DNA of 64,000 nt from a virus: IMG/VR virus record IMGVR_UViG_3300010885_031189, positions 1 to 64,000 of that record, one strand, 5' to 3'. Each line of letters starts with the position of its first letter. Position 1 is the first letter of the stretch. The position numbers and the translations under genes were made by a program. Below, piece by piece: positions 1 through 60,792 of this stretch. The notes beneath the pieces are model-generated. The model was not told the DNA's origin. It searched no databases and saw only the letters and a list, made by a program, of their open reading frames with translations.

Positions 1-2178
1 AGCAGTCCGGGCAATACATTCGGATGGCAGGCAAACTTAAAATCAGCCGCTTTTGCTAAACAAATGATTGATAAAGGTGTCACTGATATTGAAGCAATCA
101 GTGATGCTATTCATAAAGGTTGGAATGTAACAGCACACGCATTTGTTCAGAAGCCTGAACAATTTGATGATACTGCTAAGTTACAAGCTGCTGGTAAATT
201 AGAAGCAAAACTTAAACAACGAGCACAGTTGATGAAACAAAATTATGCTGAATTGCCAGAAGATGAAAAAGAAAAAGATCGGGTTGTTGCCCGTGCATTG
301 TTACAAGCATTAAAAGGTCAATCAGGTGTGGCGGAAGCAACTGGTGACAAACGGTTTGATTCTACTTTGGCAAACATTATCAAAGGTGCTACGCCAAACA
401 CACCTGAGAGATTTATAAAAGATATTAAAAATGTAGCCAAGATTAAATATAAATTCCAAGTAGGAGATTGGGTAACAATTGACCCTAACGAGACTGCCAA
501 GTGGCCCAGCAGTGGCATGATAGGTCGTATAAGTAGATTTAGCTCCGATGGTGACGCCGTAGTAAATGTAAATCCAAGTGGCGGTGCCAGTGGTGGTAAC
601 TCAAGTGGTACACATACCTCAGTGCCTACTTCAATGTTAGAAAAATTAGCTGTGAATTTAGATGAACCAGGTGTGTCGGAAGCATTAGATAAAGAAGGTG
701 ATTATCATGTATCCGTTCAAAAGGGAAAATTCTTGCCATCTGATCGTGGCGGCGGTAGTGATGAGAACCTCAACTATTTGCATGATCTAATGAATATTAG
801 CGGAACTGGTGGCGGTCCTATGTTAGTAACCATCTCCGATCCAAGAATTGCTACAGAAGTTGCGGCTATGTACGGTGGAAAGGTACTAAAAACTCGCTAT
901 GGAACTTATAGAATAGTTCAAAGTAAAGGACAGAATCAAAAAACACCAACACCAGAACCCGAATTGGTAGGTATGCGTGAGGACGGTGTGGCGGAAGGCT
1001 CTATAACTCCCGATGTCACCGTTAAAAAAATAAGTGACGATGGAAATGAAAAAGAATGGCATATATTTCGCGGCAAAGAAATGATTGGGTATGTAATAAA
1101 GAATCAGCCCGAGTTTGCTGATGGTCTATATATTGCTCATGGGCATGGTCCAGGTCGTGCTTTTGACAAAGAGTTTACGGGTTTAAAACCAGCCGTAAAT
1201 TATATAACGAGTCTAAAAGAAGGTGTGGCGGAAGACTCTTCATCACTTGATGAATATGAACGTAGATTGGCTAGCATACAATCGTTAAGATACAAAGATC
1301 CGCCGAAATATGCAATAGCGTATAAGGAGTTAATCACGGCTATGCCCAAAGAACATGCAGCACATGCTACTAATGTGCAAAAAGGTTCATATTCTTCCGG
1401 GGAGCGCGGATCAGGTACTGGTAGTATCGGGCGCGTATCAGAAGACTCAGCACAAGGTACTGCAAATAAAAAAGCTTGGGATAAAGGTCATGAAGCTGGT
1501 TACACCGGCAATGAAAAATGTCCATGCAAGCCAGGTTCTGCTGAAGAAAAAGCTTGGAATGCCGGTCATAAGGTTGGGCGGGATGAACGAAGCCATGAAA
1601 GACATGGTGTTAAAGAAGGCAATATGAAATCATCTGAAAATAATCCAACTGGCCCTAGTTTTGCTGGTGGTAAATTGAAGGGTACTGATTCTGCTGCTCA
1701 AGCTAAAAACAAATACGTAGGAGAAGACACAATGCCATCTGTTAAACTAATGCGTAATATCGCTGAAGGCTTGGTTAGAGTAGATGATGTAGTTCTAAAT
1801 CGTCCAGTTTACGGTAAACCAACTGATCAAGATCGCAGAGCAGTATATCGTATGGTTAGAGAATTTGCTGATGCCGGCATTGATTATAATGATGCAGTCA
1901 TTGAACTTGTTGAATATTTCAAACATGAATTGTCAGAACTAGCAGTTGCACCAACTATTCCAGCGGTAGGTGGACAACCAGCTACCACTACAGCACCTAC
2001 TGGAACACCAAGTAGTACAACTGCAAATACAGCAGCAAAAACACCAGATACTGTTAGTTCTACTAATGTTGTAAAACCACCAGTAACTCAACAAGGAGTT
2101 GATGCTTTAGCACAAATGGTTAAGAATGCTGGATTAAGCCCCAGTCAGATCAGCTATTTAATGTCACAGGCAAAATAA
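1..2178 (+). CDS. Modular polyprotein-like protein, probable internal head/injected protein (5'-truncated)
   Basis: Frame is open from base 1 (SSPGNTFGWQ...), so it starts before the window. Unrelated modules are separated by GVAE/GVSE/RVSE/GVKE/YVGE/NIAE motifs that resemble T4 gp21-type (I/L/V)-x-E cleavage sites. Confidence 0.6.
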   Translation, partial: SSPGNTFGWQANLKSAAFAKQMIDKGVTDIEAISDAIHKGWNVTAHAFVQKPEQFDDTAKLQAAGKLEAKLKQRAQLMKQNYAELPEDEKEKDRVVARALLQALKGQSGVAEATGDKRFDSTLANIIKGATPNTPERFIKDIKNVAKIKYKFQVGDWVTIDPNETAKWPSSGMIGRISRFSSDGDAVVNVNPSGGASGGNSSGTHTSVPTSMLEKLAVNLDEPGVSEALDKEGDYHVSVQKGKFLPSDRGGGSDENLNYLHDLMNISGTGGGPMLVTISDPRIATEVAAMYGGKVLKTRYGTYRIVQSKGQNQKTPTPEPELVGMREDGVAEGSITPDVTVKKISDDGNEKEWHIFRGKEMIGYVIKNQPEFADGLYIAHGHGPGRAFDKEFTGLKPAVNYITSLKEGVAEDSSSLDEYERRLASIQSLRYKDPPKYAIAYKELITAMPKEHAAHATNVQKGSYSSGERGSGTGSIGRVSEDSAQGTANKKAWDKGHEAGYTGNEKCPCKPGSAEEKAWNAGHKVGRDERSHERHGVKEGNMKSSENNPTGPSFAGGKLKGTDSAAQAKNKYVGEDTMPSVKLMRNIAEGLVRVDDVVLNRPVYGKPTDQDRRAVYRMVREFADAGIDYNDAVIELVEYFKHELSELAVAPTIPAVGGQPATTTAPTGTPSSTTANTAAKTPDTVSSTNVVKPPVTQQGVDALAQMVKNAGLSPSQISYLMSQAK
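325..1234 (+). repeat. Four dispersed in-frame copies of 13-bp GGTGTG(G/T)CGGAAG
   Basis: Copies at 325-337, 670-682 (one mismatch), 985-997 and 1222-1234, all in the same codon phase (G-V-A/S-E). Confidence 0.9.
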
Positions 2179-2180
2179 TC

Positions 2181-3041
2181 ATGTATGTATTGGAATTGTT
2201 TAATGGTGCCGAATCCCCGAGTCCTCGGAGGAAAGTGTCACTTACAAATATAAAAGAAGATAGCACTATGCCCGATGTTACTGATCAACCTGTCACACAA
2301 TCCAATCCTGAAGACAAAATAACATTAGATGTTCCATTGCTTATTCGCATCATGGAATATGCCCGAGAGGATTCAAAGACTGATATGGACTTACATGATG
2401 TTGCTGAACGCTTGATTGCATTAAGCGCAAATGGTAACACATTAACTATGAGTGATTATGAATCAATTGTGGGTGGTGAAGCTGATATTGAAGAAGGATG
2501 GTCCGACATAAAAAGTGGATTGAAAAAAGGTCTTGCTGCTGGAGTATTAGGTGCTGCAGCATTGGGCGCCAATGCTGGTGGTGTTTCATTACCTAATTCA
2601 GGTGGTAGTTTCCCTCCAGCCGCACAACAAACATTGAATCAGCGTGTTCAAGCTATGAAAGATGCTGAGGCTGCAAAAACTGGTACAGGTAATGCACAGG
2701 CCGCAGACCTAAGTCACTTCAATACACAATATCTACAACAAGTAGCATCCGGCGAACATCAAAGACCCCTTGTTAGCGCAGACGATGCTAAAGCAGAACT
2801 ACAGTTAAGAGCAAACGGTAAACAACAAACTGTTACTACGGAACCTAGTACTAAACCAACAGGACCAACAGGGTTTAGTAAAGAATATCTACAAAAGGCA
2901 GCTGATACTAATCGTACTGGTAGATACCTGATTAGTGTTGAAAAAGCACAAGAACTATTAAAGCAACGTGTTGAAAAAGAAAGTGTATCTGAAGATATCA
3001 CTAGTTTCAAAGACTTAGTTGGAAAAATGAGAAGATTGTAA
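2181..3041 (+). CDS. Hypothetical modular protein, probable internal head protein
   Basis: 286 aa with IKE/IEE/VSE junction motifs, a Gly/Ala hydrophobic segment (GLAAGVLGAAALG) and an internal duplication (FNTQYLQQVA.. / FSKEYLQKAA..). Confidence 0.5.
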   Translation: MYVLELFNGAESPSPRRKVSLTNIKEDSTMPDVTDQPVTQSNPEDKITLDVPLLIRIMEYAREDSKTDMDLHDVAERLIALSANGNTLTMSDYESIVGGEADIEEGWSDIKSGLKKGLAAGVLGAAALGANAGGVSLPNSGGSFPPAAQQTLNQRVQAMKDAEAAKTGTGNAQAADLSHFNTQYLQQVASGEHQRPLVSADDAKAELQLRANGKQQTVTTEPSTKPTGPTGFSKEYLQKAADTNRTGRYLISVEKAQELLKQRVEKESVSEDITSFKDLVGKMRRL

Positions 3042-3357: not shown

Positions 3358-4101
3358 ATGGCAATTAAAATCAGTCAGTTAACCCCACTTCCTACAGCTA
3401 CTACAACTACACTATTTCCTGTAATTCAAACAGGTGTTAATTATAGAGCTTCTTTTGGAAATATAGTATCATTCGTCAGTAATAATTTAACCAGCCTTTC
3501 TGGTAATTTATCTGTTAATATTCTATCTAGTACTAACAACGGGAACGGGACAAACTTTAAAGTGGGCGATGATGCTTGGATTGGTGATGTTAATATATCC
3601 AATACGCTTGCTGTCCGAGGTGTTCAAGATGCTGGACAGGGTTATATTATTTTTGGTAATGCTAACAATACCACATACATCGGGCGTAACGGAACTGGCC
3701 CTATTACAGCAACAGGAAACTTCGCAGTAACTGGTACAACGACAGTTAAGAGTATAAATGAAGCATTTACACCAAAAACTGGAGCCACTGGGGTAATAGC
3801 GCATGATTATAGTGCCAGTACTATCTTTAGTCACTCGTCCATTGCGGCTGATTTTACTGTAAATATAACTAATTTAACACTGCCTACATTAAATACTACC
3901 AATATTACATTAGTATTAACACAAGGGGCAACTGCTTATATACCATCTGCTTTACAAATTGCAGGTGCAGCACAATCCATTAAATGGCAAGGCGGAAGTG
4001 CTCCAACTGGAAATGCTAATAAAACAGATATAGTATCATTTAGTATTATGAATAATGCTGGTACTTATACCGTACTAGGTCAATTAGTGACATTTGGATA
4101 A
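3358..4101 (+). CDS. Virion fibre/adaptor structural protein
   Basis: MAIKISQL N-terminus, Thr/Asn/Gly-rich body and a C-terminal beta domain (TLVLTQG...IKWQGGSAPT...DIVSF). Confidence 0.55.
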   Translation: MAIKISQLTPLPTATTTTLFPVIQTGVNYRASFGNIVSFVSNNLTSLSGNLSVNILSSTNNGNGTNFKVGDDAWIGDVNISNTLAVRGVQDAGQGYIIFGNANNTTYIGRNGTGPITATGNFAVTGTTTVKSINEAFTPKTGATGVIAHDYSASTIFSHSSIAADFTVNITNLTLPTLNTTNITLVLTQGATAYIPSALQIAGAAQSIKWQGGSAPTGNANKTDIVSFSIMNNAGTYTVLGQLVTFG

Positions 4102-4104
4102 CAT

Positions 4105-5007
4105 ATGCCATTTCTTGGATCATTTTCAGGTACTTTCGCAAAACGAAGTGGTGGACAATCATCCCTACTAATTGAAGTATTACTTGTTGCTGGTGGCGGT
4201 GGCGGTGGCGGTGGAACTTATGGTAATGCAAACGGTGGTGGTGGTGCAGGTGGATTTTTATACGCGGCTAGTCAATCAATTCCACACGGTAGCTATGTAG
4301 TGATGGTTGGAGGTGGCGGTGCAATGGGAACGGCTGGTGGAAATGCGTCCATTTCTGGTTCTGGAATGTCGTCTATTACTGCGATTGGTGGTGGTCGAGG
4401 CGGTGGCGGATCGTCAGGTGATGCCACCACTGGCGGGTCAGGCGGCGGCGCTAAAGGTGCCGGTAGCAACGGCAATGGATTTCCTTGGGGAGTGGGAATA
4501 AATGGACAAGGAAATCGTGGTGGTAATGGAGATGCCTGGGCATCGGGTGGACGAGTCGGTGGTGGTGGTGGTGGTGGTGCTAGTGGTGTGGGAACAGATG
4601 GAGGTCCTCCAGGAGGGAATGGTGGACCAGGATCACCCAATCCAATAGCTAGTTCTACGGTTGGACAACTTAATACTGGTATATACTATTTAAGTGGCGG
4701 TGGTGGTGCTGGCGGTTCTGATTGGGAACATCGAAATGGTTATGGTGGTATTGGGGGTGGTGGTAATGCAGGAGTATCTGGAACAGTCAATACTGGCGGC
4801 GGCGGCGGCGGATCGACTACTAATGGAAGTACTTATTCAGAAGGCTCTGTAATAACAGGTCCTGGTGGCTCAGGCGTTGTTATCATTCGTTATTCATCTG
4901 CATTTCCTGCATTATCATCAACATCTGGTTCGCCCAGCATTGTAGTAGCCAATGGATATCGTACATATACCTGGACTACTACAGGATCATATTCACTAAC
5001 TTATTAA
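4105..5007 (+). CDS. Glycine-rich domain protein (putative fibre/adhesin)
   Basis: VLLVAGGGGGG...GGGGAGG...GGSGVVIIRY pattern typical of phage glycine-rich domains. Confidence 0.75.
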   Translation: MPFLGSFSGTFAKRSGGQSSLLIEVLLVAGGGGGGGGTYGNANGGGGAGGFLYAASQSIPHGSYVVMVGGGGAMGTAGGNASISGSGMSSITAIGGGRGGGGSSGDATTGGSGGGAKGAGSNGNGFPWGVGINGQGNRGGNGDAWASGGRVGGGGGGGASGVGTDGGPPGGNGGPGSPNPIASSTVGQLNTGIYYLSGGGGAGGSDWEHRNGYGGIGGGGNAGVSGTVNTGGGGGGSTTNGSTYSEGSVITGPGGSGVVIIRYSSAFPALSSTSGSPSIVVANGYRTYTWTTTGSYSLTY

Positions 5008-58187: not shown

Positions 58188-59081
58188 GTGAAATCAAATT
58201 ATCTAAATAATAAAGACATACTAAAAGAAATTCATAGAAGCAAATCTACTTACTGCTCCTTTATATCAAAAGACTTAGCCGACTATGATATTATTATCCA
58301 TTCAATTAATAACATCACTCAAGAAACAGTTGATCAGGCTAGAATTAATAGGGCAGATCGGTTATCTAGGCTAGCACTTGATGCCGCAAATGCATTAGGT
58401 GAAAAAAGAAAATTAGAGGAATTTGCAATCGATCCAGATACTGTTCTATCCACTGATGTAGTAATACGATTGATGACTTGGGATCATGTCCCAATTGATG
58501 ATATCAAAACTAAAAAAGCTGAGGCTGCTCAGGCTGAACTTGAAGAAAATGAACCAGTTCATACTGAATATGATGATGATGATGAAGTAGAAACAAAACT
58601 GTCTCCCTCAACTACTAGGTATGTAAAATGTAACTTCCCACCATTTCAACATTTTAAAGTTGATACCACTAATACTCCAATTTGTGTAGGCAAAAGCCAT
58701 TGGACAGGTGATCTAGTCACCGGTAGTTGGAGTCGTGATCACGGTGCTATGACAAAAACATTAGCCATAATGTTCATGAAACTATGTGAACGATATGCCA
58801 CTCGTAGTAATTGGCGCGGGTATACTTATAATGATGAAATGCGTAGTCAGGCCCTATTACAATTAAGCCAAATCGGATTGCAATTTGATGAGAGTAAATC
58901 AGCGAATCCTTTTGCATACTACACTGCTGCAGTGACCAATTCTTTCACTAGAGTGCTAAATATAGAGAAGCGTAATCAAAATTTGCGTGATGATATATTA
59001 GAAATGAACAACGTGAACCCATCTTATACGAGACAGGGTATGAGTTCAGGAATGCACTATGGTGACGGAGATCATGATTGA
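58188..59081 (+). CDS. gp55: Late transcription sigma factor (T4 gp55-like)
   Basis: NYLNNKD, NWRGYTYNDEM and FDESKSANPFAYYT....NSF motifs; upstream of gp47/gp46 as in T4-like phages. Confidence 0.88.
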   Translation: MKSNYLNNKDILKEIHRSKSTYCSFISKDLADYDIIIHSINNITQETVDQARINRADRLSRLALDAANALGEKRKLEEFAIDPDTVLSTDVVIRLMTWDHVPIDDIKTKKAEAAQAELEENEPVHTEYDDDDEVETKLSPSTTRYVKCNFPPFQHFKVDTTNTPICVGKSHWTGDLVTGSWSRDHGAMTKTLAIMFMKLCERYATRSNWRGYTYNDEMRSQALLQLSQIGLQFDESKSANPFAYYTAAVTNSFTRVLNIEKRNQNLRDDILEMNNVNPSYTRQGMSSGMHYGDGDHD

Positions 59082-60792
59082 CGAAATAGCTAGACTACAA
59101 AAACTAAAGCGTCTAACAATGGACTTGTTATTCAAGTCTGTTGTTTGGAATAAGCTTTCATTATACAAAAGTGAATACATAACTGATCCTCGTCAGATAT
59201 TGTATCATGCTTCTATTGATTCATTGATTGTCCCTACTTGTTTTTGTGGGGGCTCATTAAAATGGCACCCTGACAAAAGAATGTATAGATCATTTTGTTC
59301 AACGAAATGCACTGCCATTGGAACTATAGAAAAATCTAGAGTTACTAATTTAGAAAAATATGGCAGTCACTATACACAAACCTCTGAATACAAAGATAAA
59401 GTAAAACAAACCTCTTTGAATAAATTTGGCGTTGACCATTATAGTAAAAGTAGTGAGTTTTCTCAACGAATAAAAGAAACCAATTTAGCTACTTATGGGG
59501 TTGAACATCCATCCCAAAATATAGAAATACAGAAAAAGATAGTAAAAAAGTTTATTGAAAACTACGGTGAAACTAATCCAATGTTAGTTCAATCTGTAAA
59601 AGATAAAATTGAAAAAACAAATATAGATCGGTATGGTTTCAAAAATGCTGCTCAAAATACACAGGTTCAACTAAAGACAGCAGATACTAATCGTAAGAAA
59701 TATGGTGTAGGTAATGCCATGCAAAATAATACAATTTCTAATAAAGCCATCTTAACTAGAAAACAGAATTACTATAGTGAAGATGTATTAGCTAAATTAT
59801 CCAATCCTACTTGGCTTTCTGAACAAAATGAAACAATGAGCATTGCAACTCTAGCTACTAAGTTAGAAGTAAGTTCAAGTAATCTATGTAAATATTTTCA
59901 CAAGTATGGTATTGAAATTAAACAACATAGTACTACTGAACTAGAACAAAAAATGGTAGATTATTTTGTGGGCAAAGGTATAAAGGTTGAATTGAAAAAT
60001 AGAACTCTTATATCCCCTAAAGAAATTGATCTGTACTTTCCAGATTTAAAACTAGGGATAGAAATAAATGGATTTTATTGGCATTCCGAAGAATTTCAAA
60101 AAAATAAGTTCTACCATTTGAATAAGTCCATTGCTGCAGAACAAGCAAATATAGAACTATGGCATTTCTGGGATTGGGAACTTATTGATCATTGGGATAT
60201 AATTATTAGTAAAATTGAACATAAAGCCAATCTTAGTAAAAGACTATATGCTAGAAAATTAAACATTAAACTAGTTGATGCCAAAGAAAAATTATCGTTC
60301 CTACAAAGAAATCATATTCAACAGGATTGTGCCAGTTCAGTGAATATAGGACTATATGATAATGATCAATTAGTAATGATCGCTACTTTCGGAAAAAGTA
60401 GATTCGCTAAAAAAATGGATTGGGAATTACTGCGTCTCGCAGCAGAACAAAAAACTTCAATCGTAGGTGGTGCTTCTAAATTGTTATCCGAATTCGTTAA
60501 TAATCATATGCAATCAGGAGAAAAGTTAGTAAGTTATTGTCACCGGAGATTTAGTACCGGAAATGTATATAAGAAATTACAATTTGAACTGTCACATACT
60601 ACCAGCCCTGGATATTGCTACAGTAGGCGTGGGTTACCAGCCGGATCCAGGAATAAATGGCAAAAACATAAATTAGAAAAGTTGTTACCGGTGTTTGATA
60701 CCACATTATCTGAATCTCAAAATATGCAAGCGAATGGTTATTGGAAAGTTTGGGATTGCGGACAATATGTTTTCACTTATACTAAGCCGTAG
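59074..60792 (+). mobile_element. Free-standing homing-endonuclease-like gene (Zn finger + TNxxKYG repeats + PD-(D/E)xK-like + GNAT-like C-terminus)
   Basis: CFCGG..CSTKC, six repeats of about 24 aa, EIDLYFPDLKLGIEINGFYWH; inserted between gp55 and gp47. Confidence 0.7.

Follow-up and report, generated by a model that had tools for sequence, protein, structure and literature searches.

The first 2,178 nucleotides of the stretch analyzed here, a 64,000-nucleotide window at the start of a 98,319-bp IMG/VR viral contig (IMGVR_UViG_3300010885_031189), belong to a single open reading frame (ORF) in which unrelated protein modules are joined by a 12-18-nt in-frame repeat encoding (Q)GVAE(G). The explanation that we favor, with moderate confidence in it as a whole, is that this ORF is the 3' three-quarters of a polyprotein with a presumed role as head cargo, and that the junction (Q)GVAE↓(G) (the arrow marks the predicted cut) acts as both a DNA exchange point and a protease site. 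Comparison of related loci shows that modules have been gained, lost, permuted and exchanged between phages at this junction. Val-x-Glu cleavage seems the most economical reading of the encoded peptide, and we regard it as quite probable from the motifs and the gene content described below. The source phage is an uncultured giant T4-like lake phage.

A short repeat joins unrelated modules in one reading frame

Four copies of a 13-nucleotide repeat lie in the ORF, GGTGTGGCGGAAG three times and GGTGTGTCGGAAG once, all on the plus strand, in frame and encoding GVAE or GVSE (Table 1). A preliminary reading made from the letters alone (the sequence-only reading) had reported spacings of 345, 315 and 237 nt, a single and non-synonymous difference among the copies (GCG to TCG), and intervening blocks unrelated to one another, and all of these were reproduced; blastp gave no significant similarity among the four blocks that separate and flank the copies. 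The further sites that it had listed, GMRE, SLKE, RVSE, GVKE, YVGE and NIAE, are also present. Module lengths in the ORF are about 55-130 aa, and the family median is 98 aa.

The genome-wide count and codon test that had been suggested yielded the four window copies only and two rare codons. No further copy of the 13-mer was found on either strand of the whole contig. GTG accounts for 10.6% of Val codons in the contig and GCG for 6.8% of Ala codons, so that GGT GTG GCG GAA would be expected for only about 0.3% of GVAE tetrapeptides. By chance, 0.03 matches with at most one mismatch are expected, and none of 100 dinucleotide-preserving shuffles reached four.

Silent sites are fixed at the junction across the family

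A HMMER search against 1.8 billion representatives returned 389 relatives. In nearly all of them the shared part is limited to residues 1-112 (module M0), which may lie anywhere in proteins of 150-1400 aa. Among the best 150 matches, the commonest tetrapeptide was GVAE, with 252 occurrences, usually as QGVAEG. A set of 96 related loci, some of which overlap (1.06 Mb in total), contains 137 copies of the 11-mer GGTGTGGCGGA, each on the strand of the gene, in phase and within an ORF of at least 254 aa. GGT GTG GCG is used at 99 of the 122 GVAE sites in 81 non-redundant ORFs. With up to two mismatches allowed, 189 sites are in frame versus two and one in the other two frames, and the extended junction consensus is CAA GGT GTG GCG GAA GGC (QGVAEG), 12-18 nt.

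As a control, we took the Ala and Gly columns of M0 that are invariant in these ORFs; their codons are mixed, and the share of GCG is 0-12%. At the next junction after M0, placed by homology and not by the motif, GTG is used in 24 of 28 cases and GCG in 23 of 26. Thus, silent sites at the junction are held or continually reset, whereas those of the adjacent conserved module are free and have been randomized, in agreement with the earlier suggestion that conservation here is at the DNA level. We propose, from these codon patterns, that frequent exchange, selection for exchange, or both keep the silent positions fixed.

The exact 17-mer, scanned for across IMG/VR, occurs in at least 120 stretches. 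Among the loci listed, 103 matches fall in 80 loci, of which 99% keep the phase of an open frame 100 aa or longer (other frames, 1-2%), and M0 is present in only one of 82 ORFs bearing the 17-mer. In the larger relatives of the phage, the motif is present in at least two distinct genes. As the data are all metagenome assemblies, chance repeats or chimeric assembly at the repeat could in principle produce such a pattern. We consider this extremely implausible: the chance expectation is far below the copies seen, the same architecture recurs in independent samples (loci L002, L003 and L004), 99% of the 103 independent matches keep phase, and a 13-mer is shorter than the k-mers usually used in assembly.

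Modules change partners at the junction

When the window ORF was compared with all loci by blastn, the homology of modules M8, M2 and M15 was found to end within 0-4 nt of the 13-mers, and the partner contigs have different modules flanking each of them (Table 1). The module order is M0-M8-M2-M15-M3 in the window, M7-M15-M2-M8-M16-M17-u-u-M3 in the related polyprotein P0001, M7-M0-M8-M17-M2-M3 in P0002 and M10-M2-M18-M3 in P0003. Alignment of related loci bears out the expectation of the sequence-only reading that module content and order would differ at the repeat among relatives. In P0002, moreover, one further module, of about 110 aa, has been inserted at GVKE↓G; sites with DNA diverged from the 13-mer therefore mark module boundaries as well.

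Over the whole set, 37% of the internal ends of protein high-scoring segment pairs (HSPs) lie within 5 aa of a junction, versus 4% at random, and 30% of internal DNA HSP ends fall at the motif, versus 3% at random. The pool is large, with 109 clusters among 167 internal modules (median 98 aa), and M0 is the one module for which tandem duplicates were observed (4 of 151 proteins). The phage of loci L002-L004 is syntenic with the window, and the DNA-polymerase regions are 85-86% identical over 5.3 kb. The polyprotein parts that the two share are M2, at 97%, and the tract at 1455-2495, at 98.9% identity. Modules at 97-99% against a syntenic core at 85-86% indicate that modules moved recently between diverged genomes.

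A probable mechanism of exchange

Neither a tyrosine nor a serine recombinase was found in the contig or in five larger relatives (57-86% complete; all genome fragments), and IntI-type tyrosine recombinases (PF00589) were likewise absent from these fragments. No recombinase or nuclease gene is a conserved neighbor across about 90 loci; the genes beside the polyprotein gene vary, and include a DNA polymerase, a ClpA-like ATPase and a terminase. The 13-mer is neither self-complementary nor attC-like, and all 137 copies of the 11-mer are direct, with none on the opposite strand. The description of the array as integron-like, offered by the sequence-only reading, therefore survives as an analogy and fails as a mechanism.

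Given that all repeats are direct and that no dedicated enzyme is apparent, homology-driven exchange or template switching is the simplest mechanism. Modules would be re-dealt by the phage's own homology-driven recombination, or by template switching, on short identical repeats, and a dedicated site-specific recombinase would not be involved. Genes for an SbcCD/gp46-47-type recombination nuclease are present in the window. T4-type recombination reportedly needs less than 50 bp of homology, and the promoter early stem-loop (PeSL) motifs of T4-type phages follow the same principle (PMC2839356).

The 13-18 nt might instead have a sequence-specific function, as the target of a nuclease, a nickase or an unknown recombinase, or as an mRNA signal such as a Shine-Dalgarno (SD)-like pause between domains, with exchange as a mere consequence. 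Conservation of GTG and GCG does exceed that of any silent site in the neighboring conserved module, the genome is rich in homing-endonuclease-like genes, and base pairing of the motif and flank with the canonical anti-SD tail is moderate (top 0.2-8% of ORF windows). However, such pairing is not confined to the motif and leaves GCG GAA unexplained, and the searches above revealed neither a conserved neighboring enzyme gene nor a tyrosine or serine recombinase. Silent and tolerated replacement positions also vary at similar low rates, as in young or homogenized copies. We judge such a function distinctly unlikely as the primary explanation. Two specific candidates were rejected. SD-like pausing was set aside as the anti-SD pairing is moderate and not motif-specific, and a G-quadruplex of the form GG-N3-GG-N-GG-NN-GG was discounted as its G-tract positions 2, 6, 7 and 9 belong to those that vary most.

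The junction as a predicted prohead protease site

Mismatches at positions 1-12 of the 189 sites number 4, 32, 11, 13, 0, 21, 18, 10, 17, 0, 1 and 16, respectively. The bases kept are T5, the middle of the Val codon (a hydrophobic P3), and G10 and A11 of the Glu codon (P1). Junctions anchored by M0 read x-[VMIL]-x-E in 157 of 174 proteins, also where the DNA has drifted, with variants such as GMAE, DVAE, GVSE, GVEE and EIAE. From the constrained bases and these variants, it follows that hydrophobic-x-Glu outlasts the decay of the DNA word.

The T4 prohead protease gp21 cuts Alt at ITE-6 and LTE-619 (PMC5694885) and removes the N-terminal propeptides of internal proteins (IPs) (PMC3012670). An S77 protease of the gp21 type is encoded on the contig of this phage, its gene placed between the portal gene (phrog_213), a scaffold-like gene and the major capsid protein (MCP) gene (phrog_138), and was found in four of the five larger relatives. 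In this phage and four relatives, the sites LLE↓G, ILE↓N and (H/L)LAE↓(T/S) are conserved in the MCP propeptides.

The N-termini of the family are also suggestive. T4 Alt begins with MELITELF (T4 record), and family members begin with MIIDELF, MILNEFF, MNFKELF, MFITELF, MKINEILTE or MRITEIITE. Of 78 family ORFs, 27 have an Alt-like N-terminal signature, versus 43 of 741 other ORFs at the same loci (p = 3e-12). Within the phage's own genome, it is found in the ORF at 2181-3041 (MYVLELF), in a 74-aa ORF (MFITELF) and in the ORF at 78101-79357 (MLIIELF; L015:14101-15357). In addition, about 15 loci have a stand-alone M0 gene of 147 aa with its stop codon at the would-be junction position, behind a short, poorly modeled N-terminal peptide ending in LNE. 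Thus, a module delimited by junctions corresponds to a small protein that exists in nature.

The likeness of the junction to a protease site, proposed by the sequence-only reading, is upheld by indirect evidence, namely the P3/P1 constraint, the encoded S77 protease, the MCP propeptide sites and the Alt-like N-termini; the fit to hydrophobic-x-Glu specificity is one of motif, and Val, not Leu or Ile, predominates. In the proposed scheme, an Alt/IP-like N-terminal tag would direct the precursor into the prohead core, and the phage's S77 (gp21-type) prohead protease would cut it at Val-x-Glu during head maturation, yielding separate small proteins. These would then travel with the DNA into the host, like IPI-III and Alt of T4.

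Alternatively, the product could be an uncleaved multidomain protein, like beads on a string, in which GVAE is a flexible linker and a DNA joint for domain shuffling within one chain, virion-associated or not. The shuffling at the joint does not need cleavage, Val at P3 departs from the classical T4 Leu or Ile, and the linkers predicted by AlphaFold2 (AF2) fit an uncut chain equally well. A plain linker, however, would not keep exactly hydrophobic-x-Glu while its other positions and the DNA drift. The modules also work in any order, and as stand-alone genes ending at the junction position, and the Alt-like N-termini of the family and the S77 protease in the genome likewise speak against an uncut chain, which we consider unlikely.

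Several points nevertheless weigh against the head-cargo reading. Its central steps of cleavage, packaging and injection are plausible ones that we infer from sequence. Canonical T4 sites have Leu or Ile at P3, not Val. The ORF has no homology to IPI, IPII, IPIII or Alt of T4 in PHROGs or Pfam (the sole Pfam match is a weak one to RMF); the IP/Alt class is a functional one, and membership is therefore compatible with absent sequence homology. The N-terminus of the window ORF itself lies outside the contig, and the orthologues P0001, P0002 and P0004 (828-1190 aa) have an extra N-terminal block whose start, MKFL(R/N)EG, is less Alt-like. The AF2 model of the 725-aa fragment has a mean predicted local distance difference test (pLDDT) score of 54.7 and is confident only in M0 and at aa 415-460. 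All four window junctions lie in stretches with pLDDT below 50, and the low confidence of the model overall makes their reading as linkers weak. As to exchange, a length of 13-18 nt is short for RecA/UvsX-type recombination, the fixed silent sites could serve another function, and the comparison with L002-L004 also has breakpoints, at window 1455 and 2495, that are not at a junction.

More tentatively, and with rather less confidence than in the polyprotein itself, the same 12-18-nt word may be dual-coded, as a cut site that releases cargo and as a recombination joint kept by selection. A clade of giant lake phages would then share more than 100 in-frame cassettes and re-deal its injected arsenal far faster than its core genes diverge, in a manner resembling exon shuffling and without a dedicated recombinase.

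Identity of the modules

More than 300 proteins contain M0, with no fixed position, and the copies are 70-90% identical. The AF2 model of a stand-alone copy has a pLDDT of 89. The Pfam RyR domain (PF02026) matches 26 of 38 members weakly (best E 0.012, about 15 bits, cut-off 27.4), RyR repeats fill the top rows of a Foldseek search at a non-significant E of about 0.5, and VIA-align gives Z scores of 4.0-4.3, also not significant. M8 may be a KOW/SH3-like barrel, judging from Atlas structural leads at a template modeling (TM) score of about 0.5, and the Atlas model of M15 resembles whole viral proteins of 93-122 aa, which we take as a lead only. Between the RVSE and GVKE sites, an RMF-like stretch was noticed at window 1465-1590 (aa 489-530), with the pattern W..G...G..G....CPC......W..GH; the Pfam RMF model matches these residues at E 0.0049 and 17.3 bits, below its cut-off of 27.9.

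The polyproteins of relatives include GNAT, cytidylyltransferase-like and LysM modules. Two relatives, L101 (G005:C1:1-14000) and L102 (G002:C1:124000-142000), have modules with a ParB/sulfiredoxin-like DGHHR or DGNHR motif, and an N-terminal nucleotidyltransferase-like block (GGFHPFHAGH), both recognized by eye. The polyprotein ORF had no match among GenBank phages (blastn) or in PHROGs, and a sequence search of the PDB returned nothing. The sequence-only reading had called the modules small effectors; this was an assumption, as most of them have no recognizable function, and an effector role is hypothetical.

Comparison with known cargo and shuffling systems

The head proteins that a phage injects are its first means of countering host defenses. 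In T4, a capsid-targeting sequence (CTS) or N-terminal propeptide of IPI, IPII, IPIII and Alt is removed by gp21, and the proteins are injected with the DNA (PMC3012670, PMC5694885). The family described here resembles them in its T4-type head module with an S77 protease, in the short Alt-like N-termini of many of its members (compare MELITE↓LF), in presumed cargo that is small, diverse and fast-evolving, and in sites that end in hydrophobic-x-Glu. Unlike IPs and Alt, to which it has no sequence homology, it has many cargo modules fused in one ORF with internal sites between them, P3 is mostly Val, and the processing and packaging are predicted from sequence.

In the PeSL cassettes of T4-type phages and the elements of the T-even IP locus, conserved flanking motifs mediate modular shuffling, with mini-circles (PMC2839356, PMC4122927). 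There, as here, variable cargo lies between short conserved DNA motifs at which crossovers occur, and exchange is ascribed to the recombination machinery of the phage itself, with no dedicated recombinase known. A PeSL is an intergenic element of about 100 bp that comprises an early promoter and a terminator stem-loop (PMC2839356), whereas the present motif is 12-18 nt, lies within the reading frame between unrelated flanks, lacks both promoter and hairpin, and encodes a putative peptide signal as well. The gp38 adhesin of T-even phages has glycine-rich motifs (GRMs), in or near which exchanges between phages occur (PMC3157838). These too are conserved in-frame motifs between variable segments, but they form the structural core of one folded domain in a fixed order, whereas here the domains are independent, unrelated and in any order.

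Swapping of unrelated modules at a short common joint is also known from integrons (attC and IntI), the R64 shufflon (sfx and Rci) and the VENN pre-toxin motif of CdiA. The common short joint and the pool of unrelated modules are shared with all three. Unlike integrons and shufflons, the phage array has no integrase or Rci-type recombinase and no attC-like palindrome, and its repeats are direct and in frame; unlike all three, it has many joints per gene and not one. Its cassettes lie within one ORF, whereas those of integrons are separate ORFs, and the inverted repeats of the Rci/sfx shufflon are lacking. By its defining features, then, the junction is not that of an integron, a shufflon or a PeSL.

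No description of a GVAE or QGVAE phage junction, or of a prohead-protease-processed polyprotein of this sort, was found in the literature. What differs from the T4 cargo and shuffling systems is the presence of many units in one frame, an in-frame joint of 12-18 nt, and the use of the same word, apparently, as a protease site. The injected proteins of T4 are single genes shuffled via flanking regulatory motifs, and here the same logic appears compressed into one frame. A single word serving as protease site and crossover would let any module be added, dropped or moved with frame and processing intact. The junction is also a clear case of selection or homogenization on silent sites within a coding region. 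If the reading is confirmed, a CTS-like start with QGVAEG joints would become a sequence rule for finding packaged cargo in uncultured giant phages, and would give access to an extensive catalogue of small proteins with a probable role in early infection; the polyprotein would also be a natural scheme by which several foreign proteins could be loaded into capsids of the T4 type.

Feature coordinates and genomic context

The contig has a GC content of 36.6% and is 28% complete by CheckV estimate, which implies a genome of roughly 350 kb. A T4-type head cluster is located on the same contig, beyond the window (Table 1), and a T4-like DNA polymerase is encoded within the window. The larger relatives (197-303 kb) share its capsid protein (78-79% identity) and, in four of five, its protease. 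The 74-aa ORF of the head cluster occupies the position that the core proteins gp67 and gp68 hold in T4.

Table 1. Features of the polyprotein ORF, the gene downstream of it and the head gene cluster. Coordinates are those of the window unless marked as genome coordinates; arrows mark predicted cuts.
Feature	Coordinates	Strand	Remarks
Polyprotein ORF, 725 codons plus stop	1..2178	+	5'-truncated; contig begins inside the gene
Module M0, helical domain, weak RyR-domain likeness	1..324	+	Most widespread module of the family
Junction 1, GGTGTGGCGGAAG, GVAE↓A	325..337	+	Many M0 DNA alignments to other contigs stop at 337
Module M8	338..669	+	DNA homology to L010 over 323-682, bounded by junctions 1 and 2, in a different module context
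Junction 2, GGTGTGTCGGAAG, GVSE↓A	670..682	+	One non-synonymous mismatch
Module M2	683..984	+	97% DNA identity to L003 and L004 over 669-998, bounded by junctions 2 and 3, other modules flanking there
GMRE	970	+	Just before junction 3
Junction 3, GGTGTGGCGGAAG, GVAE↓G	985..997	+	
Module M15	998..1221	+	DNA homology to L019 (982-1238), L062 and L018 (987-1238), bounded by junctions 3 and 4
SLKE	1210	+	Just before junction 4
Junction 4, GGTGTGGCGGAAG, GVAE↓D	1222..1234	+	
C-terminal block	1235..2175	+	Four junction-like sites with DNA diverged from the 13-mer
RVSE	1432-1443	+	Junction-like site of C-terminal block
GVKE	1606-1617	+	Junction-like site of C-terminal block
YVGE	1714-1725	+	Junction-like site of C-terminal block
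NIAE	1756-1767	+	Junction-like site of C-terminal block
Downstream gene, product starts MYVLELF	2181..3041	+	
Portal, phrog_213			Head cluster
74-aa ORF, product starts MFITELF	Genome 70336-70560 (L015:6336-6560)		Between portal and prohead protease
Acidic 274-aa protein			Head cluster
Prohead protease, S77 (gp21-type)	Genome 71488-72126		phrog_207 (3e-57); Pfam Peptidase_S77 86 bits, cut-off 27
Scaffold-like protein			Head cluster; rich in hydrophobic-x-Glu sites
MCP, phrog_138			Head cluster

The gene immediately downstream of the polyprotein, at 2181-3041, probably encodes another head-cargo protein, to judge from its predicted N-terminus. Its first 315 nt lie within the 98.9%-identical tract that the window shares with L002-L004. 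That tract ends at window 2495, inside the gene, where there is no GVAE-type site, and the product has 286 aa in the window and 146 aa in L002-L004.

Some other genes of the phage and its relatives were noted in passing. Two large homing-endonuclease-like genes (phrog_3339) are located at window 59059-60792 and at 74563-75996 of the phage's own genome; one adjoins the SbcCD-like genes and the other is immediately 3' of the major capsid gene. A ClpA/ClpB-like AAA+ gene annotated as an ATP-dependent protease (phrog_4871, E 4e-242) lies near an M0-bearing gene in 19 related loci, for example at L014:3899-6202. Finally, a very glycine-rich protein of 300 aa (phrog_2295, E 1e-27) is encoded at window 4105-5007, after a tail-fibre-like gene at 3358-4101 (phrog_9017), and the strand opposite bears a long proline-rich shadow ORF.

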